DNA of 64,000 nucleotides from a virus: positions 96,001 to 160,000 of IMG/VR virus record IMGVR_UViG_3300043427_001127; one strand, given 5' to 3'. The notes below the pieces were generated by a model. The model saw only the letters and a program-made list of their open reading frames with translations, was not told the DNA's origin and did not search any database. Of the stretch, positions 13,348 through 20,619 are shown one piece after another (within the stretch, counting starts at the first letter, position 1; every line of letters begins with the position of its first letter). Both the position numbers and the translations under genes were made by a program.

Positions 13348-13424
13348 GTCTCGGTAGCTCAGTTGGATAGAGCATCTGCCTTCTAAGCAGTTGGTCACAG
13401 GTTCAAGTCCTGTCCGAGACGCCA
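13348..13424 (+). tRNA. tRNA-Arg(TCT)
   Basis: Cloverleaf, anticodon loop CTTCTAA, encoded CCA. Confidence 0.95.
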
Positions 13425-13496
13425 GGGCGATTAACTCAGCGGTAGAGTGGCCTCCTTACAAGTGGTAAGTCACTGGTTCGATTCCAGTATCGCCCA
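13425..13496 (+). tRNA. tRNA-Val(TAC)
   Basis: Cloverleaf, loop CTTACAA. Confidence 0.93.
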
Positions 13497-13504
13497 TATA
13501 AACT

Positions 13505-13735
13505 ATGAATACATACTATATTTCTTTAATACTAATCTGTGCTCTGGTGTATATCATCTGGCAGGATCCAAATGTACCAGAGTACATTAACCTAAGGATA
13601 AAGTTAATGCATATCAACTTTATTCGGTGGAACATGGCAAGAAATATGAAGCGACAACTTGATAGAGAATCTAAAAAAATGCAAAAAGAAATGGCAGAGT
13701 GGTTAAAAGAAAAAAATGGCAAAGATCAGATGTAA
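13505..13735 (+). CDS. hypothetical membrane protein
   Basis: N-terminal TM helix, basic tail. Confidence 0.7.
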   Translation: MNTYYISLILICALVYIIWQDPNVPEYINLRIKLMHINFIRWNMARNMKRQLDRESKKMQKEMAEWLKEKNGKDQM

Positions 13736-13973
13736 CGCATGTGGCGTAGAGTTAGAAGTATATCAACCAAACAAAAGCAAGTCATGTGGCTGCGATAATC
13801 ATACCCTTCTGAGGTTAGATAGAAGTGGTATGCCTATTATCAGTGGCAATGACTTGTCGCACATTACTGCTGTTGATGGAGTCGGAAAACCGAAAGAGAA
13901 AAAGGTTGACAATCCTCCCGTAGCAGGTTATACTAAGAGAATACCCAGAAAACTGGACTTTGAAATCCGCTAG
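13716..13973 (+). CDS. small Zn-ribbon-like protein
   Basis: IRCNACG...SCGCDN. Confidence 0.7.
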   Translation: MAKIRCNACGVELEVYQPNKSKSCGCDNHTLLRLDRSGMPIISGNDLSHITAVDGVGKPKEKKVDNPPVAGYTKRIPRKLDFEIR

Positions 13974-14061
13974 GAAGTGTGGCAGAGCGGCTTAATGCAG
14001 CGGTTTGCTAAACCGCCGATGTCTTTATGGGCATCCGTTGGTTCAAATCCAACCACTTCCG
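13973..14061 (+). tRNA. tRNA-Ser(GCT)
   Basis: Cloverleaf with long variable arm, G73; promoter TTGACA-17-TATACT at 13906-13934. Confidence 0.93.
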
Positions 14062-14106
14062 TTGCCCTATGGGCATGACATGTCGTTTAAATCTTAAGAA
14101 ACTATT

Positions 14107-14961
14107 ATGATTCGTTCATTTATTGCTGCTGGCGTCGCTGCTGCTTCTATTGCTGCTCCCGCCATGGCACAAGTCACCAGTGTGACTCAACTGAAAGATG
14201 TGCAACCTACTGATTGGTCGTATCAGGCTATCTCTAACCTGATCTCTCGCTACGGTTGTGTTGCTGGTTACCCCAATGGCACTTTCCAGCCTGGTCAACC
14301 TGCTTCCCGTGCTGAGCTCGCCGCTCTCACCAACGCTTGCCTTGACCGCATCAGCGAGTATCAGAGCGCCGCTGACGCTGCTCTGGCTGCCGCTCTACGC
14401 GCTCAGTTCTCCAAAGAGATTGCTGCTACTAACACCCGCGTGAGCGCCCTTGAGGTCGCTGCTGCTCGCAAGGCACAAGGCGTTGGTAACTACGTTGGTC
14501 TTGGCGTTCTGCTGAATAAGCAAGGCGTTGACGGTGGTGGTAAGACTGCCAACAGCACCATCTCTGGTGGTACTCTCCAAGCTCGCTATGCTGTGAAGAC
14601 TTTCGGCAACCAGAATGCTGTATCGGTTCGCCCTTACATTAATGCTGTTGCTGGACCTGATAGCAACATCGGTGCCGCTGGTGGTGCTATGCTCTCTTAT
14701 GACTGGAGCATCGCCCGCAAGGCAGGTGTAAGCGCCGCTAACATCTATGCCGCTGCTGGTTACCAAGTTCCTTTTGTCAATGGTGTTGAAGCAAACTCTC
14801 AGTCTGCTGTAGGCACTGGTACTGCTGTGCTTGCTCTTGGTTTGGAAGGTCGCATCACTAACTCTCTGATTGGTTTTGCTGATCTGAAGTTCCCTACTGA
14901 GAAAGTTGGTACGGGTTCTTACTCTCCTGTGTTCACTACGGGTCTTGGATTCAAGTTCTGA
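14107..14961 (+). CDS. SLH-domain outer-membrane protein (cyanobacterial porin-like N-terminus plus short beta-barrel)
   Basis: Signal peptide; VTSVTQLKDVQPTDWSYQAI..RYGCVAGYPNGTF..RAELAA..NACLD; C-terminal GLGFKF. Confidence 0.88.
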   Translation: MIRSFIAAGVAAASIAAPAMAQVTSVTQLKDVQPTDWSYQAISNLISRYGCVAGYPNGTFQPGQPASRAELAALTNACLDRISEYQSAADAALAAALRAQFSKEIAATNTRVSALEVAAARKAQGVGNYVGLGVLLNKQGVDGGGKTANSTISGGTLQARYAVKTFGNQNAVSVRPYINAVAGPDSNIGAAGGAMLSYDWSIARKAGVSAANIYAAAGYQVPFVNGVEANSQSAVGTGTAVLALGLEGRITNSLIGFADLKFPTEKVGTGSYSPVFTTGLGFKF

Positions 14962-14967
14962 TAAGTG

Positions 14968-15342
14968 ATGAAAAAACTCTTCAAGCGTTGGAAAAATAGA
15001 CCAAGAACTCGCCAAGGGTGGATTGATTTATATGTTTCATATTTGAAGAGGATACCAGAGAGGCAATACTTTCCAATCTTTGTATTGCTCTCTCTGTATT
15101 TCGTGGTTCCGTATAGTGAGTTTGTAGTCACTGCACTCATACCACTATACTTTCTCTTCGAGAAACAAGTTCGTTGGTTCTTTAGTAAGATTCCAATGCC
15201 AGACTATCTGAGAATAGGTGGCTCAGTTATATTCTTTTTGGTTATGATTGATGACTACCTGTTCTACTTTGCTATCATGGCATTCGCTGCTTGGAGCGCC
15301 AAGCAACTGAAGAAAACAAAAGAGTCCGACGAGGGGGCTTGA
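14968..15342 (+). CDS. hypothetical membrane protein
   Basis: Multiple hydrophobic helices. Confidence 0.7.
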   Translation: MKKLFKRWKNRPRTRQGWIDLYVSYLKRIPERQYFPIFVLLSLYFVVPYSEFVVTALIPLYFLFEKQVRWFFSKIPMPDYLRIGGSVIFFLVMIDDYLFYFAIMAFAAWSAKQLKKTKESDEGA

Positions 15343-15367
15343 CATGCTCCCGACCCTCCTATATAAT
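15339..15367 (+). promoter_or_regulatory. sigma70-type promoter for tRNA-Ser
   Basis: TTGACA-17-TATAAT. Confidence 0.85.
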
Positions 15368-15383
15368 ATGAGGGTCAACAAAT

Positions 15384-15468
15384 GGAAGTGTGGCCGAGTG
15401 GTTTAAGGCACTTGTCTTGAAAACAAGCATGGTGAAAGCCATCGTGGGTTCAAATCCTACCACTTCCG
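15384..15468 (+). tRNA. tRNA-Ser(TGA)
   Basis: Cloverleaf, loop CTTGAAA, long variable arm. Confidence 0.95.
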
Positions 15469-15469
15469 C

Positions 15470-15600
15470 TTGGTACTCGTTAGGCAGATAGCCTAGAAGG
15501 AGACCAACTTATCACAAGCGCCTGGAGATAAACTTGTCTGCTGTGATACGACAGAGGGTAAGTCCCTGTTATATCCTTGAGGTATATCACACTTACTCCA
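15470..15600 (+). ncRNA. unidentified structured RNA between tRNA-Ser and tRNA-Pro
   Basis: Hairpin 15470-15507, plus multi-stem element 15523-15600 closed by TGGAG/CTCCA. Confidence 0.5.
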
Positions 15601-15603
15601 TCA

Positions 15604-15677
15604 CGGGATGTAGCTCAGTTTGGTAGAGCACTCGCTTTGGGAGCGAGGGGCCGTAGGTTCAAATCCTATCATCCCGA
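15604..15677 (+). tRNA. tRNA-Pro(TGG)
   Basis: Cloverleaf, loop TTTGGGA. Confidence 0.95.
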
Positions 15678-15692
15678 TTCTTCTTAGAGGAG

Positions 15693-15971
15693 ATGTTAAT
15701 GATTTCGCAACTGGTTATTTACACACGAGATAACTGTGAATATTGTCGTAAACTCAAGGTCATCCTTGATAGTTTTACTGTCAAATACACACAGTACAAA
15801 CTGGATGTTGACTTTGATAGGGAAACATTCTATAATGAGTTTGGTGAAGGTTCTACATTTCCTCAGGTGACCCTTGATGGTCACTCTGTTGGGGGTTGTA
15901 CTGAAACCATTGAATACCTAACCAGCATTGGTTGCCTACAAGAAGAAAAAGACATGGAGTGTATGGTATGA
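15693..15971 (+). CDS. glutaredoxin
   Basis: CEYC, TFPQV, VGGC. Confidence 0.9.
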   Translation: MLMISQLVIYTRDNCEYCRKLKVILDSFTVKYTQYKLDVDFDRETFYNEFGEGSTFPQVTLDGHSVGGCTETIEYLTSIGCLQEEKDMECMV

Positions 15972-16129
15972 AAACGATCACAGAAGAAACTTTTTGTCAC
16001 GACTTTGATGAGATTATGGACAACGTGATGCTTAACAAAGAAAGTTTTATCATTACCACATCAGATGGTAGTGATGTTCTTCTGATGCCATACGAAAACT
16101 ATGAGCGAATACAAGGGGAGTTAGCTTAG
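15968..16129 (+). CDS. Phd/YefM antitoxin-like small protein
   Basis: MKTI..F..DF..IMD.V....E..IIT.....VLLMPYE.YE pattern. Confidence 0.65.
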   Translation: MKTITEETFCHDFDEIMDNVMLNKESFIITTSDGSDVLLMPYENYERIQGELA

Positions 16130-16187
16130 TTGGTAGAGCGCCTGCTTTGCAAGCAGGAGGTCAGGGGTTCAAATCCCCTACTCTCCA
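16115..16187 (+). tRNA. tRNA-Ala(TGC)
   Basis: Cloverleaf, G3:U70, loop TTTGCAA. Confidence 0.93.
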
Positions 16188-16190
16188 TAA

Positions 16191-16283
16191 GGGGGTGTAG
16201 CTCAATTGGCAGAGCGAGAAGCTTATACCTTCTGTATGCACCAGATTAGTGCGCGGTTGGGGGTTCGACTCCCTCCACCCCTA
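16191..16283 (+). tRNA. tRNA with TAT anticodon (nominally Ile) and long variable arm
   Basis: Acceptor GGGGGTG/CACCCCT, anticodon arm AGAAG-CTTATAC-CTTCT, extra arm GCAC-CAGATTA-GTGC. Confidence 0.85.
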
Positions 16284-16299
16284 TTAGGATAGATAAAAA

Positions 16300-16920
16300 A
16301 TGAAACTGATTAAACATACAAATTACGTATACGAATATCAAAACTTTGTAAGTGATGATGTGTGTGATCACGTAACATCAATCATGCAATCTTCAAATAT
16401 TTCTTCCGAAATATGGAATGCTGGCAGAAATGATATTAGAAATAATAATGTTATTAACTTAACAACTTATAAAACTATACAGGGTTGGACAGATCAAAAT
16501 ACTTTACAAAACCTACATAGTGTAGATAGTATTTCTCACGAAGTTTTTTCAAAAGTATACCGTGAGTATCTAAAAGATTGCCCTAGGTTATCTTTTACTA
16601 TGATAAGACAAAAAATCTTAAACTTTGGTAGTGCGTATTACTATCGAACTTATGATGAAAAAGATTATTATGATTGGCATATAGATCATGATCTTCAAGA
16701 AGAAAATCTTCTTTCATTTTTATGGTACTTGAATGAAGATTATTCTGGTGGAAAACTTATGTTCTTAAATGATAAGATTTCTATTCAACCAAAGAAAGGA
16801 AGTCTAATATGTTTTCCTGTTGGTCATTGGTGGGTACACAAATCATCACCAATAAAATCTGGGAATAAAAAAGTGATTTGGACTTGCTTTTTTAAAGATA
16901 GGGAGAAAAAAAATGTATGA
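16300..16920 (+). CDS. 2OG-Fe(II) oxygenase (prolyl-hydroxylase-like)
   Basis: WHID, WYLNEDYSGGKL, FP..W..H, K. Confidence 0.9.
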   Translation: MKLIKHTNYVYEYQNFVSDDVCDHVTSIMQSSNISSEIWNAGRNDIRNNNVINLTTYKTIQGWTDQNTLQNLHSVDSISHEVFSKVYREYLKDCPRLSFTMIRQKILNFGSAYYYRTYDEKDYYDWHIDHDLQEENLLSFLWYLNEDYSGGKLMFLNDKISIQPKKGSLICFPVGHWWVHKSSPIKSGNKKVIWTCFFKDREKKNV

Positions 16921-17125
16921 AAATCAAACAGATTTTGAATGGCACCTTTTTGAGTTTGGTAAAAAAGTAGAATACATTCTTGCTGCAGAGCTTGCAGGCA
17001 AAGAAGATGCTAACGAAGCATACAAAAAGATTAAACATTTGTTTGAAGACCTCAAAAAGTTTCGCAAACAAGAAAAGAAACAAGATCATCCATTAGATTA
17101 CGACCAAATCCCTGATAGGTATTGA
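16913..17125 (+). CDS. hypothetical protein
   Basis: FGKKVEYI.AAELAGK....EAYKKIK.L. Confidence 0.7.
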   Translation: MYENQTDFEWHLFEFGKKVEYILAAELAGKEDANEAYKKIKHLFEDLKKFRKQEKKQDHPLDYDQIPDRY

Positions 17126-17703
17126 TTATGTTGTCACAAGGATTAGTTGAAACTGAACACGAAGAGCCTGGATTTGTGATTACTCATCTGTCTTTCAGGA
17201 AACGTGAATCTTCACAACTCTATGGTGGTCCTGTAGATTACTACATCGGCAACATTGTATTTCGTTTGACTAACGAAGATGCGAAAGGTCGCATGGAATA
17301 CATTATGAGAGAGAATGAAAGAGTTCGTGTAGCACCAGACGAGGAGTTACATAACAAGTATTACGATGGTCTTCACTTCAAGTTTGACAGAGAAAAGGAA
17401 GAAGTAAATGAAGATGGTGAAAAGTTTTATAAGCTTGACATCATCAACAAAGAAGGTATCAAAGATGAAGATGTATTCATCTGGGGATACCGTCGCAACA
17501 TGGATCCACTACATGACTTCATTGAATACAATGAGAAGTTCGATTGTTACCGAATGCACGAATACTTTCAAGACACACCAGTAGTTCGTGGTATAATACA
17601 GTATCTCCAAGACATGAAAGATGGTAAACCTAATCCAAGCCGCACGGTCTATCATGAGCAGTTCCTCTCAACGCTCACAAACCTCTGTTGGTGGTGGGAC
17701 TAG
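17122..17703 (+). CDS. hypothetical protein
   Basis: Long coupled ORF ending LCWWWD. Confidence 0.75.
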   Translation: MIMLSQGLVETEHEEPGFVITHLSFRKRESSQLYGGPVDYYIGNIVFRLTNEDAKGRMEYIMRENERVRVAPDEELHNKYYDGLHFKFDREKEEVNEDGEKFYKLDIINKEGIKDEDVFIWGYRRNMDPLHDFIEYNEKFDCYRMHEYFQDTPVVRGIIQYLQDMKDGKPNPSRTVYHEQFLSTLTNLCWWWD

Positions 17704-17819
17704 AACCTGTTCCAAGTGCCACACCGAGCAACCCCTTGACAAGGACCACTACCAAGTGGTAAAATACTTTCGTACAGGATTCTCCTACTACTGCAATGAC
17801 TGCAACAAACCAAAGCCGC

Positions 17820-18065
17820 GTGAAGACAATCCTTGATCGTTTTCCATATAGATACGTACAGGCAGGTATCTTAGAGATCAACGGCAAACCTGATTATCGT
17901 ATTCAAAAAATGTGTTCTTACACCAGTCGTTATCGTGATATGTATCTCTGCGACAATGAAATGCAGTTTATGACAGCGATCGAAGATTTTGAGTATACCA
18001 AGTGGCTTGACCCAGACACAGTTCCATGCTATATTAAAGGAGACGACAACGATGAAGATGAGTGA
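17820..18065 (+). CDS. conserved cyanophage hypothetical protein
   Basis: RFPYRYV..G...NGKPDYRIQK...DMYLCDN..KWLDP. Confidence 0.75.
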   Translation: MKTILDRFPYRYVQAGILEINGKPDYRIQKMCSYTSRYRDMYLCDNEMQFMTAIEDFEYTKWLDPDTVPCYIKGDDNDEDE

Positions 18066-18330
18066 TCAAGTTAAATATCAACTAGAGCGAGCGGAAGATG
18101 CTTTGCGTTCTGCTCTTATGATGTTGGATAGTAAAGAGAGTGTTTATGTAATCTCTGCTATTTCTAAGGCATTGATTGAGATTGATAATAGTTTGTTTGC
18201 TGAACGTGCTGCTGAAGGTTCAATCTCTATTACCAAAGAGGAGCAACCTGATGGAAATGTTAAATACGAAATGAACAATACTCCTTTTAAATGGGATAAT
18301 CAAACATCGTTTGTATCCGCAAATAAATAA
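18052..18330 (+). CDS. hypothetical protein
   Basis: ORF, start uncertain. Confidence 0.6.
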   Translation: MKMSDQVKYQLERAEDALRSALMMLDSKESVYVISAISKALIEIDNSLFAERAAEGSISITKEEQPDGNVKYEMNNTPFKWDNQTSFVSANK

Positions 18331-18383
18331 GACACGGATGGTCTATAACAGAACTGGTGGAGTCAAGTTACCCTTTGAATGCT

Positions 18384-18563
18384 ATGAACTTTCGTATTGT
18401 TGAGCAACTAGATAATAATGATGAAGTCATTACTTACTTTCAAGTTCATGAACTTGACAATGGTTATCATTGGGAGTATGATGGTGAGCAACATGGTCCT
18501 TTTGGGAACATGCAAGATGCAGTAGATTCTGCATATGACAACTTAATACCTGTCTCGGAATGA
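18384..18563 (+). CDS. small hypothetical protein between two RNA-motif copies
   Basis: MNFRIVEQL...GYHWEY.GEQHGPF. Confidence 0.6.
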   Translation: MNFRIVEQLDNNDEVITYFQVHELDNGYHWEYDGEQHGPFGNMQDAVDSAYDNLIPVSE

Positions 18564-18596
18564 CACTAAACTTGCCCTGGTCGGGTGAACCCCCTT

Positions 18597-18692
18597 CTGG
18601 TTTCTTGTTTTCCCATTAAAAAACAAGTGGTGCGGATGGGACTCTCTCCCGCCCAGTTTCCTGCCTCTGGTCAAAGGGCAGGTGGCGAGCCG
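18597..18692 (+). ncRNA. wcaG-like RNA motif (tandem H-type pseudoknots)
   Basis: Two units: TGG/CCA with CTTGTTT/AAACAAG, and CCAG/CTGG with CCTGCCT/GGGCAGG; each followed by TGGYG. Family name from memory, needs a cmscan check. Confidence 0.6.
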
Positions 18693-18704
18693 AGCAACGG
18701 GGGG

Positions 18705-18733
18705 TTGACATCCCCCACCCTCTCGGATATAAT
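18705..18733 (+). promoter_or_regulatory. sigma70-type promoter for tRNA-Met operon
   Basis: TTGACA-17-TATAAT. Confidence 0.85.
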
Positions 18734-18744
18734 ATGAGGGTCAA

Positions 18745-18821
18745 CGCGGGATGGAACAGTCTGGTAGTTCAGCGGTCTCATAAGCCGCAGGTCGCAGGTT
18801 CAAATCCTGCTCCCGCCCCCA
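18745..18821 (+). tRNA. tRNA-Met(CAT), initiator-like
   Basis: C1 mismatch, loop CTCATAA, encoded CCA. Confidence 0.88.
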
Positions 18822-18822
18822 C

Positions 18823-18904
18823 GTCGCTGTGGCGGAATTGGTAGACGCGCTGGGTTTAGGTTCCAGTGAGGTAACTCGTGAAGGTTCAAGTCCTTTCAGC
18901 GACA
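18823..18904 (+). tRNA. tRNA-Leu(TAG)
   Basis: Cloverleaf, loop TTTAGGT, long variable arm. Confidence 0.93.
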
Positions 18905-18948
18905 TTGAGAAAGTGATCCTGCGGGTTCGCCCAAGAGCTCTCCTTTCT

Positions 18949-19152
18949 CAACTATCTGGCCAGGTAGTATAAAGTTAGCCTAGTCCGAGATTGGCACGGT
19001 CGTTATGATATGCTCAAACAGATTGCCTTTCGCAATCAAGCCTCTATCATCCCGTAACTTTAACCTGATTGGTTGAGTTGCAATCTCTCTTTAGGGGGAG
19101 AATGCTCAAAACTACATAGTATCGTAGCAGATATATAGTGTAGTAGCGAGCA
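18949..19152 (+). ncRNA. manA-like large structured RNA
   Basis: Pairings CAGGT/ACCTG, AAAGTTA/TAACTTT, TGATA/TATCA, GATTGC/GCAATC and possible GCTCA/TGAGT pseudoknot; lies between tRNAs. Family name from memory; boundaries approximate. Confidence 0.55.
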
Positions 19153-19155
19153 CCT

Positions 19156-19227
19156 GCGGAGTTAGTTCAGCGGTAGAACGCTATCCTTCCAAGTTAGATG
19201 TCGTCGGTTCGATTCCGATACTCCGCT
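19156..19227 (+). tRNA. tRNA-Gly(TCC)
   Basis: Cloverleaf, loop CTTCCAA, U73. Confidence 0.93.
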
Positions 19228-19249
19228 CTTATCCCTGAGGATAAATAAC

Positions 19250-19420
19250 ATGTCACTTATTTCACAGAGAGACAGACAAGTTGCCATCAGAGCACTTGAA
19301 ATGTATGCTGCTGAGGCAGAAACTGCAGAGTATTATCTGGGGTCTTCGCATCACTCAGCATCTGAAATCAACGCATTACTTAACTGGATTAGATTAGAGT
19401 ATTACAAACATGAAGATTAA
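19250..19420 (+). CDS. small hypothetical protein
   Basis: GAGGA SD; MSLISQRDRQVAI...LLNWIRLE. Confidence 0.65.
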   Translation: MSLISQRDRQVAIRALEMYAAEAETAEYYLGSSHHSASEINALLNWIRLEYYKHED

Positions 19421-19574
19421 TCTGTGGTATTGCGAAACAATGAAACAATGGCGATGGACTCTCGTAGATGACCATCGACCCATTGTTAAAATGGAATCTG
19501 GTCAACGCCCAGATCTACGCGACGCCATGAATGACGTTGCAAATACTGTAGAATATATGTTATCTCAACAGTGA
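19410..19574 (+). CDS. small hypothetical protein
   Basis: MKINLWYCETMKQWRWTL...MESGQRPDLRDAMNDVANTVEY. Confidence 0.65.
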   Translation: MKINLWYCETMKQWRWTLVDDHRPIVKMESGQRPDLRDAMNDVANTVEYMLSQQ

Positions 19575-19580
19575 TTTTAT

Positions 19581-19652
19581 TGGAGTGTAGCTCAGCGGTA
19601 GAGCGGTCGGCTGTTAACCGATTGGTCGCAGGTTCGATCCCTGCCACTCCAG
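19581..19652 (+). tRNA. tRNA-Asn(GTT)
   Basis: Cloverleaf, loop CTGTTAA. Confidence 0.95.
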
Positions 19653-19655
19653 TTC

Positions 19656-19737
19656 GGGTAGGTGTCCGAGTGGTTAATGGAAACGGACTGTAAATCCGTC
19701 GGCTCCGCCTTCGGGGGTTCAAATCCCTCCCTGCCCA
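19656..19737 (+). tRNA. tRNA-Tyr(GTA)
   Basis: Cloverleaf, loop CTGTAAA, long variable arm. Confidence 0.95.
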
Positions 19738-19825
19738 CCTTGGGATTATCTTGTAAAACAGCTCCAATGTTTCCTCTTTGAGGTTTAGATTTTTTCCTTG
19801 ACCGCTGTGGGGAAACGGTCAACTT

Positions 19826-19897
19826 GGAATCGTAGCTCAGTGGTAGAGCACTCGGCTGATAACCGAGCGGTCACAAGTTCAAATCTTGTCGGTTCCA
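19826..19897 (+). tRNA. tRNA-Ile(GAT)
   Basis: Cloverleaf, loop CTGATAA. Confidence 0.95.
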
Positions 19898-19939
19898 TAT
19901 TGTATAATAGACTACAGTTGTAGATAAATATATACAATA

Positions 19940-20151
19940 CGTTCATCCCTTTGGGACGGAAGTAAGCCGACTCGGAACGGATCGTTCATCTATGGAAGCA
20001 CTCATTCTAACCTGCTTGCAGGCACAACTGATTGCCACCCGAGTTGCTGCGGCAGACATGCCTAAGCAAACTCGCAACGATCTCATATGGGAGGTCAAAC
20101 AGATCTCTCCTAAGGAGTGCAAGATAGACGCAAAAGCCGACTGAAGGAACG
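19940..20151 (+). ncRNA. tandem glutamine riboswitch-like element (glnA / Downstream-peptide type)
   Basis: Unit 1: CGTTCA-TCCC-ttt-GGGA-CGGAAGTAAGCCGACTC-GGAACG. Unit 2: CGTTCA-TCTAT...ATAGA-CGCAAAAGCCGACTGAAGGAACG. Confidence 0.75.
19992..20144 (+). CDS. small protein encoded within riboswitch unit 2 (50 aa)
   Basis: MEALILTCLQAQLIA...KECKIDAKAD, read manually. Confidence 0.6.
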   Translation: MEALILTCLQAQLIATRVAAADMPKQTRNDLIWEVKQISPKECKIDAKAD

Positions 20152-20183
20152 CTCTTTAACCTAAAAAACTAAGGAGAAACCTA

Positions 20184-20342
20184 ATGTCACAAGCAACCTA
20201 CAGAGGTTGTCAGTACAACACTGACGTACCTAAGCAAGAATATCAGCGTTGGTATTCACAAACTCATGCACCAGCACATCCACAGAATACATATCGTGGT
20301 GTTGCCTACCGTCCTTGTAAGAACTCGGAGGTAGCACAATGA
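20184..20342 (+). CDS. DUF4278-like small protein
   Basis: AAGGAG SD; two YRGxxY motifs, as typically found downstream of Downstream-peptide RNAs. Confidence 0.75.
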   Translation: MSQATYRGCQYNTDVPKQEYQRWYSQTHAPAHPQNTYRGVAYRPCKNSEVAQ

Positions 20343-20425
20343 ACTGGTTGAATCTAATCCGTAGACAGATTGAAAAACAAAAGAGACTAGAGATTGCCCA
20401 ATATCATATGGCAACTCTCGGATAA
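20339..20425 (+). CDS. 28-aa peptide MNWLNLIRRQIEKQKRLEIAQYHMATLG
   Basis: GGAGG SD, ATGA overlap. Confidence 0.6.
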   Translation: MNWLNLIRRQIEKQKRLEIAQYHMATLG

Positions 20426-20427
20426 AG

Positions 20428-20453
20428 CAAAGGGGGCATATGCCCCCTTTTTT
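20428..20453. terminator. bidirectional intrinsic terminator
   Basis: AAAGGGGGCA-ta-TGCCCCCTTTTT between convergent genes. Confidence 0.85.
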
Positions 20454-20619
20454 ATTTCCTTAGTGTATGTAAGTATTGAATCATTGCTTCCCTGATATAC
20501 ATTAGCTCGTGGTAGCATTTCTGATTGTGAGCACACTGCCTCAGTTCGTTGTCTGGTTTGTGTACGCTCTCAATAAACAAATCTAATCCTCTGTTCCATT
20601 TGTCGTTGTCTTCAGTCAC
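20452..20619 (-). CDS. hypothetical protein
   Basis: KWNRGLDLFIESVHKPDNELRQCAHNQKCY. Confidence 0.7.
   Translation of the reverse strand: MTEDNDKWNRGLDLFIESVHKPDNELRQCAHNQKCYHELMYIREAMIQYLHTLRK

Follow-up and report, generated by a model that had tools for sequence, protein, structure and literature searches.

Does a cyanophage leader that carries two copies of a glutamine riboswitch-like sequence, one of them with a gene inside it, contain two independent sensors or a single one, and how do gene and sensor share the same nucleotides? The leader in question lies at positions 19940 to 20176 of a 64,000-nucleotide stretch (IMG/VR virus record IMGVR_UViG_3300043427_001127, positions 96,001 to 160,000), here called the window; the whole record has 171,625 bases and belongs to a T4-like cyanomyovirus. 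A first-pass annotation made from the DNA letters had described it as two tandem aptamers with a 50-codon open reading frame (ORF) looped out of the second. We are highly confident that the leader is instead one glutamine-I-type riboswitch, predicted to fold as a nested double three-way junction with the gene enclosed by one of its helices.

Relatives were collected from IMG/VR by two scans seeded on the motif and one seeded on the protein, which combined gave several hundred loci; the layout is common to hundreds of related phages. The counts of loops and ORFs rest on 121 cyanophage loci, those of the linchpin and P3 pairs described below on 130 distinct doublets seeded on the linker between the two units, and the covariation scores of whole folds on an alignment of 31 compact doublets (A2). 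The first unit is common to 146 phage records. Six relatives were examined closely, five of which have the layout of the window, while S-CREM1, whose element was annotated as a glnA riboswitch by its authors (PMC9964418), has a compact hairpin replacing the ORF.

Unit 1 reads CGTTCA-TCCC-ttt-GGGA-CGGAAGTA..GGAACG (19940 to 19979), including the compact P2 hairpin TCCC-ttt-GGGA of the first-pass annotation, and a second CGTTCA copy follows at 19983 to 19988. The P1 strands CGUUC and GAACG thereby occur twice in the window, and P2 is closed by U-A and C-G right after CGUUCA. The linker between the units is 3 to 4 nt long in nearly all loci. The predicted fold is composed of the following parts.

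19940 to 19944, + strand: 5' strand of the outer P1 (CGUUC), partner 20147 to 20151; invariant across relatives, the partner being taken from the junction geometry and from P3 and linchpin covariation
19946 to 19956, + strand: compact P2a hairpin UCCC-uuu-GGGA of the outer junction, from the Rfam alignment
19957 to 19964, + strand: junction strand J2/3, CGGAAGUA, with the linchpin base G19959 and with AGUA (19961 to 19964) as one half of loop E, from the Rfam alignment
19965 to 19972, + strand: 5' strand of P3, AGCCGACU, partner 20135 to 20142, from cross-unit pair counts
19975 to 19987, + strand: inner P1 hairpin GAACG-GAU-CGUUC, of invariant sequence; G19980, the first loop base, partners C20131
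19989 to 19993, + strand: 5' strand of P2b (UCUAU), holding the A and U of the start codon, partner 20124 to 20128, from covariation
19992 to 20144, + strand: nested 50-codon gene in the P2b loop, from the ORF list, for a small two-cysteine protein (phrog_504)
20124 to 20128, + strand: 3' strand of P2b (AUAGA), within codons 45 and 46 of the nested gene
20129 to 20134, + strand: inner J2/3 (CGCAAA), without AGUA; C20131 is the inner linchpin base
20135 to 20142, + strand: 3' strand of P3, AGCCGACU; the stop codon begins at U20142
20143 to 20151, + strand: GAAG and the 3' strand of the outer P1; GAA (20143 to 20145) is the second half of loop E, and GAACG lies at 20147 to 20151

The glutamine riboswitch class has a loop E in its junction, which is interrupted by a single covarying pseudoknot pair, G23-C60 (PMC11702757, PMC11477058, PMC6212724), here called the linchpin. 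In the doublets, AGUA is found in unit 1 only and GAA in unit 2 only; unit 1 has C for GAA, unit 2 has CAAA for AGUA, and loop E is complete only across the units. Unit 1 carries the consensus J2/3 CGGAAGUA, whereas unit 2 carries GAAGGAACG but a shortened J2/3, CGCAAA, which is near-invariant in the sample, this being seeded on the linker and not on CGCAAA itself. The linchpin follows the same division. Position 23 of unit 1 and the base after P1 of unit 2 form a canonical pair in 130 of 130 doublets (C-G in 73, G-C in 57), compared with 73 of 130 for the within-unit pairing. In the window, this pair is G19959-C20152, and pairing within the own units would give G·G and C·C. The inner pair, C20131-G19980, is C-G in 126 of the 130.

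As a local hairpin, P3 would have 2 bp only, and the two AGCCGACU segments pair with each other instead. The cross-unit pair 8-1' is canonical throughout (130 of 130; U-A 102, G-C 20, A-U 6, U-G 2), and the pairs 1-8' (A-U 125, G-C 2, C-G 1, G-U 1) and 5-4' (G-C 115, G-U 9, A-U 5) are canonical in 129 each, with one mismatch each. Within a unit, the pair 1-8 is canonical in 103 of 130 doublets, the hairpin alternative failing in 27 of 130 in each unit. For the whole fold, the nested arrangement has a covariation score of 0.121 against 0.032 after shuffling (reached by 0 of 500 shuffles), with 32 doubly changed cells, whereas the independent-unit fold scores 0.004 and 243 of 500 shuffles are as high. 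The nearest-neighbour energies are -10.4 kcal/mol for the nested and -6.4 kcal/mol for the tandem fold, and the minimum-free-energy fold of a compact relative forms both the outer and the inner P1. The nested topology is preferred because it alone reproduces the canonical junction, in which a single A stands between the 5' strand of P1 and P2, and GAAG runs into the 3' strand of P1.

In this topology, the outer junction is predicted to have all canonical features, namely P1, P2a, J2/3 with AGUA, loop E, and the G19959-C20152 linchpin. P3 is predicted to be an 8-nt duplex of the two AGCCGACU segments and not a hairpin. At the far end of this duplex, the putative inner junction is circularly permuted and lacks loop E, being composed of GAACG-GAU-CGUUC, P2b, and CGCAAA.

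The two units could also be read as independent tandem aptamers, a pseudo-cooperative doublet whose second member merely tolerates an ORF in its P2 loop. Both P1 pairings have the same sequence, so that either fold is possible, and the compact units of relatives reach 33 to 38 bits with the Glutamine model (Rfam ID RF01739), each being near or above the Rfam cut-off of 35 bits on its own. Sherlock et al. (PMC9481103) catalogued 157 glutamine doublets and 4 triplets in 2022, filing them as pseudo-cooperative independent riboswitches. Their doublets, like ours, consist of two aptamer-like units placed head to tail and 3 to 4 nt apart, and they are probably the same objects as the cyanophage doublets, because an RF01739 search of 151 sampled cyanobacterial genomes found 22 with copies and none with adjacent copies. 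A scan of genome contigs with the linker pattern gave at least 120 matches, with none among the matches listed showing unit 1 features, which is no evidence on absence from cells. An ORF in P2 is not mentioned in PMC9481103, and our covariation data favour one interlocked fold with a single expression platform. Under the tandem reading, about half of the sequences would have a non-canonical closing pair in P3 and a non-canonical linchpin; the covariation is no better than that of the shuffles, the nearest-neighbour energy is worse, and neither unit would hold a complete loop E. Furthermore, a spacing of 3 to 4 nt leaves no space for an expression platform per unit. We consider two independent aptamers improbable, and the first-pass claim to this effect is given up in favour of the interlocked fold.

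Some features nevertheless weigh against the nested fold. Both P1 helices are invariant, and the choice of their partners comes from geometry, P3, and the linchpin, with no covariation in P1. The linchpin has two states only, which may reflect one or few events, and A·C mismatches occupy two of the eight positions in P3.

The Rfam results are in keeping with a split sensor. At the gathering threshold, the scan reports nothing at the locus, and in E-value mode it reveals unit 1 only (19938 to 19983, 34.3 bits, E value of 1.2e-5), 0.7 bits short of the gathering score. Unit 2 is not reported because the insert of about 130 nt interrupts P2 of the model. The glutamine riboswitch identity proposed in the first-pass annotation is thus recovered by the scan at borderline for unit 1 and not for unit 2. 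The highest-scoring RF01739 match in one relative (L109) reaches 46 bits and is a chimera, its 5' part lying in unit 1 and its 3' part in unit 2.

The long-range stem that encloses the gene had been proposed from the window as TCTAT (19989 to 19993) pairing with ATAGA (20124 to 20128) across about 130 nt, and the relatives support it by covariation. The stem pairs were counted by anchoring on CGTTCA and CGCAAA, which gave 63 distinct strand combinations. Pairs 1 to 5 are canonical in 99.4%, compared with 76% under shuffling of the partners, and pairs 3 to 5 in 98.9% compared with 60%, the observed value being reached in 0 of 5000 shuffles. Shifting the partner by 1 to 3 nt lowers the canonical share to 31 to 49%. 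Position 3 occurs as U-A, C-G, and U-G, position 4 as A-U, U-A, C-G, and U-G, and position 5 as U-A, A-U, U-G, and C-G, and the stem reaches 14 bp in some phages. A MAFFT alignment of the whole ORF-bearing units was dropped for this count, as it aligned on the ATG and brought the 5' strand of P2 out of register.

The loop of this stem is a gene. About three-quarters of the sampled doublets bear at least one loop gene, and the 121 loci contain 111 P2 loops of at least 138 nt, every one of which has an ORF. In 31 relatives among these loci, it is the compact P2a that is swapped for an ORF-bearing long-range stem. In all 111 cases, the ORF starts with an ATG that lies within the 5' strand of P2, 9 to 11 nt from where CGTTCA begins, and no Shine-Dalgarno sequence precedes it in the leaders inspected. 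Of 80 unit 2 loop ORFs, 76 stop at the TGA of GACTGAAGG, whereas unit 1 loop ORFs end at the TAA of CGCAAGTAAG or just ahead of the 3' strand of P2. In the window, TGA (20142 to 20144) falls in GACTGAAGGAACG, its T being the last base of P3 and its GA the first two of the loop E half. As the loop ORFs stop inside the core, their C-terminal residues (ending in DAKAD or GRK) are encoded by the aptamer core itself.

The encoded proteins are diverse, with 107 of 111 being distinct, and the only invariant columns are two cysteines, C8 and C43 (102 sequences). Among 25 distinct 50-codon relatives, 32%, 22%, and 46% of the differences fall on codon positions 1, 2, and 3, and the ratio of nonsynonymous to synonymous differences (pN/pS) is 0.47 in frame compared with 0.84 and 1.63 in the other two frames. 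The nested protein of the window matches phrog_504 (E value of 0.0022), and a profile search found 929 homologous clusters. AlphaFold2 predicts a two-helix hairpin with a predicted local distance difference test score (pLDDT) of 84. The fold search against solved structures gave no match (best E value of 3.7), and beyond solved structures it returned uncharacterised cyanophage proteins only. The missing Shine-Dalgarno sequence is the sole point in favour of a non-coding structured insert whose open frame is accidental, a reading that we regard as negligible in view of the 111 open frames out of 111, the two invariant cysteines, the third-position codon bias with its frame controls, the PHROG families, and the confident AlphaFold2 model. 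The invariant cysteines, the in-frame pN/pS, and the model indicate that the nested ORFs are coding, and the looped-out ORF of the first-pass annotation is retained as a real gene that begins in the 5' strand of P2 and ends in the conserved core.

Other loop ORFs match phrog_6471, phrog_13397, or no family. Profile-profile comparison between the phrog_504 type and the phrog_6471 type gave 55%, and with the signal-peptide type less than 10%, the alignment running cysteine to cysteine. The loop ORFs appear to be several families which share a two-cysteine layout and not one family, and common ancestry is weakly supported. One ORF (84% identity) occupies P2a in one phage and P2b in another. With a unit 1-type protein alone as seed, a search recovered 71 evaluable copies, of which 68 lie between aptamer halves and the other three have a decayed 5' strand and a terminator.

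Several single loci show further arrangements. In L109 (3763 to 3884), the P2 loop of unit 2 is a 43-nt AT-rich insert with the direct repeat ATTAGGATTCTTAATA in two copies and no ORF; this loop tolerates non-coding inserts. In L353, L363, and L393 (match at about 501 to 701), a signal-peptide-type ORF is kept, the 5' strand is decayed (CAGTTCA), the 3' half is missing, and a terminator follows directly. These look like riboswitch remnants in which the gene alone was retained. P0001, a protein of 106 residues, joins a unit 1 loop ORF in frame to one from unit 2 via LGTDRSS, which is the translated inner P1 region, the unit 1 core being deleted. The frame of the unit 2 ORF is often open backwards through unit 1, and gene callers over-extend it (P0008, P0012, and P0018). 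In L003 (619 to 642), L025, and others, the compact P2a TCCCTATGGGACGGAAGTAA encodes a mini-ORF, ATG GGA CGG AAG TAA (MGRK and stop), corresponding to the start and the final three codons of unit 1 loop ORFs (ending in GRK and stop), which would fit either loss of the gene or a state before its insertion.

What does it mean for the sensor that it encloses a gene? The start codon is shown to overlap the predicted P2b, and the stop codon the predicted P3 and loop E, so that translation of the nested gene and folding of the switch are expected to compete, which agrees with the mutual exclusion suggested in the first-pass annotation. The gene might alternatively be a passenger: P2 loops would tolerate inserts, and the gene would share the promoter and be translated during transcription, with the sensor folding later and no cross-talk between the two. 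The ORFs do belong to several sequence families (phrog_504, phrog_6471, phrog_13397, and one without a family), they are found in either loop or in both and can move between loops, L109 has a non-coding insert in their place, and three loci retain the ORF despite a decayed aptamer. However, a free-standing insert would bring its own ribosome-binding site (RBS) and spacers, whereas here the AUG lies within the 5' strand of P2 without exception, no Shine-Dalgarno sequence was seen in the leaders inspected, and the stop lies in or beside the conserved core. As the physical overlap makes some interference unavoidable, we consider a pure passenger unlikely and continue with a gene that interferes with the sensor.

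The output of the switch is expected downstream, where the following features are found.

20152 to 20176, + strand: expression platform; C20152 pairs with G19959 and also opens the helix CUCUUUA (20152 to 20158)/UAAGGAG (20170 to 20176)
20184 to 20342, + strand: gene of a DUF4278-like (IF17-like) protein of 52 residues, the YRG ORF, from Pfam and PHROG matches
20339 to 20425, + strand: gene of a 28-residue peptide, its start overlapping the preceding stop (ATGA); phrog_545
20429 to 20457, + strand: intrinsic terminator closing the cassette, called at 20429 to 20450 by the terminator scan, with a 9-bp stem and then a T run

The 7-bp helix CUCUUUA/UAAGGAG, which starts at C20152 and covers the Shine-Dalgarno sequence of the 52-residue gene, is found in both the minimum-free-energy and the centroid fold, and 50 of 56 relatives having C after GGAACG possess it. 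In the model of the gifB leader, glutamine captures the C and melts the helix that hides the RBS (Klähn et al. 2018, PMC6212724). Where the last GGAACG is followed by G, as in relatives that are for the most part phages of marine Prochlorococcus and Synechococcus, the CUCUUUA/UAAGGAG helix is missing; a short hairpin begins at that G, in the variants GGG/UCC, GGGU/ACCC, and GGAU/AUCU.

The first-pass annotation had also named a YRG, DUF4278-like gene followed by a 28-residue peptide gene, and both are present. The 52-residue protein has a DUF4278 (Pfam ID PF14105) score of 21.4 bits (E value of 3.3e-4), below the gathering score of 25.3, and its homologues score 20.3 to 23.3 bits, with the P-SSM7 homologue reaching 30.3 bits. 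It further matches phrog_5049 (E value of 2.9e-9). The 28-residue peptide is conserved as phrog_545 (E value of 6.2e-6), and S-CREM1 has it as an in-frame fusion with the YRG gene. Short marine IF17-like proteins have been described without the C-terminal region that contacts glutamine synthetase (PMC6212724), and the phage DUF4278-like proteins are likewise short. A two-stage circuit and an action of the peptides on host nitrogen assimilation, possibly on glutamine synthetase, are conjectures of the first-pass annotation.

From these elements, a mechanism can be proposed. A ribosome on the nested gene, chiefly when terminating at UGA, would open P2b, P3, loop E, and the outer P1, and, as it unwinds the helices of the sensor, there would be no sensor while the nested gene is read. 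The glutamine-bound fold would in turn bury the nested AUG, itself without a Shine-Dalgarno sequence. By analogy to gifB, glutamine binding would remove C20152 from the CUCUUUA/UAAGGAG helix, freeing the RBS of the DUF4278-like gene, and the 28-residue gene would be translated next by coupling. The net output would be the two-cysteine protein at low glutamine and the IF17-like peptide together with the 28-residue peptide at high glutamine. Reciprocal control, in which glutamine shuts the inner gene and turns on the DUF4278-like gene, is a tentative proposal to which we give nearly even chances. Slightly more doubtful is the full two-output toggle, in which nitrogen status during infection would pick the output and translation-folding feedback would sharpen the choice.

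A coupling of the opposite sign, resembling that of leader peptides, is also conceivable: ribosomes terminating at UGA (20142) would unwind the anti-Shine-Dalgarno helix at 20152 and activate the DUF4278-like gene, with glutamine gating entry into the ORF. The stop codon is located 9 nt before the anti-Shine-Dalgarno strand, which places a terminating ribosome in reach of it, and B12 riboswitches coupled to an upstream ORF (uORF) are known from Mycobacterium tuberculosis. Compact doublets without an ORF carry the same platform, however, which hence works without a uORF, and the stop codons of some loop ORFs precede the 3' strand of P2 and are thus distant from the platform. We judge positive coupling as the main mode of control very unlikely and keep to the reciprocal scheme.

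Against this scheme, about 130 nt of transcription separate the AUG from its pairing partner, and ribosomes could load co-transcriptionally whatever the glutamine level. The anti-Shine-Dalgarno helix is without covariation, and the terminating ribosome, 9 nt away from it, might open it, which would make the coupling of the two genes positive and not reciprocal. The platform of the relatives with G differs from that of the window, and their switching logic may be different. Binding of glutamine by the RNA, at one site or at two, and translation of the nested ORF are themselves predictions from sequence. Taken as a whole, the combination of a nested double junction, a gene in P2b, and reciprocal logic is the best explanation, held with moderate confidence.

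The surroundings of the switch add further signals, for which two more features are needed.

13348 to 19898: cluster of 13 tRNA genes (Arg, Val, Ser twice, Pro, Ala, Ile twice, Met, Leu, Gly, Asn, and Tyr), directly upstream of the switch
19902 to 19915, + strand: GTA-N8-TAC palindrome, a possible NtcA box, read from the sequence

Of 80 distinct relatives, 62 have a GTA-N8-TAC palindrome no more than 75 nt upstream, in most of them 58 to 59 nt before CGTTCA and adjoining a -35-like TTGAC or TTGC, where about 0.02 would be expected per sequence by chance. That of the window sits just 38 nt upstream. The palindrome suggests a second, transcriptional tier of nitrogen control. The cassette stands right behind tRNA-Ile, and no sigma-70 promoter was found in the 41 nt separating the two. 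GATAAATA (19923 to 19930), which ends 9 nt before CGTTCA, is similar to TATAAATA, the T4-type late promoter motif. The transcript may start at GATAAATA or come from the tRNA cluster. The region of the tRNA cluster also contains a wcaG RNA (Rfam ID RF01761, 92.9 bits) at 18596 to 18696, and in DSL-LC03, DSL-LC02, P-SSM7, and P-RSM6 the riboswitch cassette is placed after nrdB instead of the tRNA cluster.

Glutamine riboswitches, their occurrence in cyanophages, and their doublets are already known (PMC2864571, PMC9964418, PMC9481103), and, in literature coverage that lacked some key papers on the class, we came across no description of a P2-borne gene or of a strand-exchanged fold. The closest known system is the glutamine-I riboswitch (RF01739) of the Synechocystis gifB/IF17 leader (PMC6212724), which shares with the window the core of CGUUCA, a P2 closed by U-A and C-G, CGGAAGUA, and GAAGGAACG-C, as well as loop E, the one-pair linchpin, an RBS-hiding helix that begins at the linchpin C, a DUF4278/IF17-like downstream gene, and possible NtcA control upstream. 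The window differs in that P3 is an inter-unit duplex and not a hairpin, a second, permuted junction without loop E stands inside the first, the P2 stem closes around a gene, and the element is borne by a phage.

In the tandem glycine riboswitch, two homologous aptamer domains likewise fold together over one shared platform, but they keep separate secondary structures joined by tertiary contacts and have no coding sequence inside, whereas here P1, P3, loop E, and the linchpin are formed by exchanged strands and a gene lies within. Group I and group II introns carry homing endonuclease or maturase ORFs in peripheral loops, so that a gene is looped out of a functional RNA helix, is mobile between loops, and has the RNA folding around it, as in the doublets. 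The introns are ribozymes, whereas here the RNA is a metabolite sensor with the start and stop codons in its pairing and binding core, which would bring translation and sensing into direct competition. The atypical B12 riboswitches of Mycobacterium tuberculosis that Kipkorir and colleagues reportedly described in 2024 are said to tie their output to translation of a short uORF, reportedly placed in the expression platform downstream of the aptamer and not in an aptamer helix.

Aptamers are usually seen as compact sensors without coding content, and their tandem copies as modules that work independently; a validated riboswitch class here breaks with both views. Two copies swap strands into one predicted nested fold, and a gene sits in a sensor helix, its start and stop codons belonging to the core used for pairing and binding. 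In this natural system, ribosomes in transit and the sensing of the ligand make use of the same nucleotides. The layout accounts for standard covariance-model scans missing or under-scoring the cyanophage elements, and it points to at least four sequence families of small phage proteins whose production would be linked to host glutamine, with a bearing on the ways in which cyanophages abundant in marine and fresh waters sense, and perhaps steer, the nitrogen metabolism of their hosts. If the toggle holds true, the nitrogen status of the host would select the two-cysteine protein when glutamine is low and the IF17-like peptide pair when it is high.

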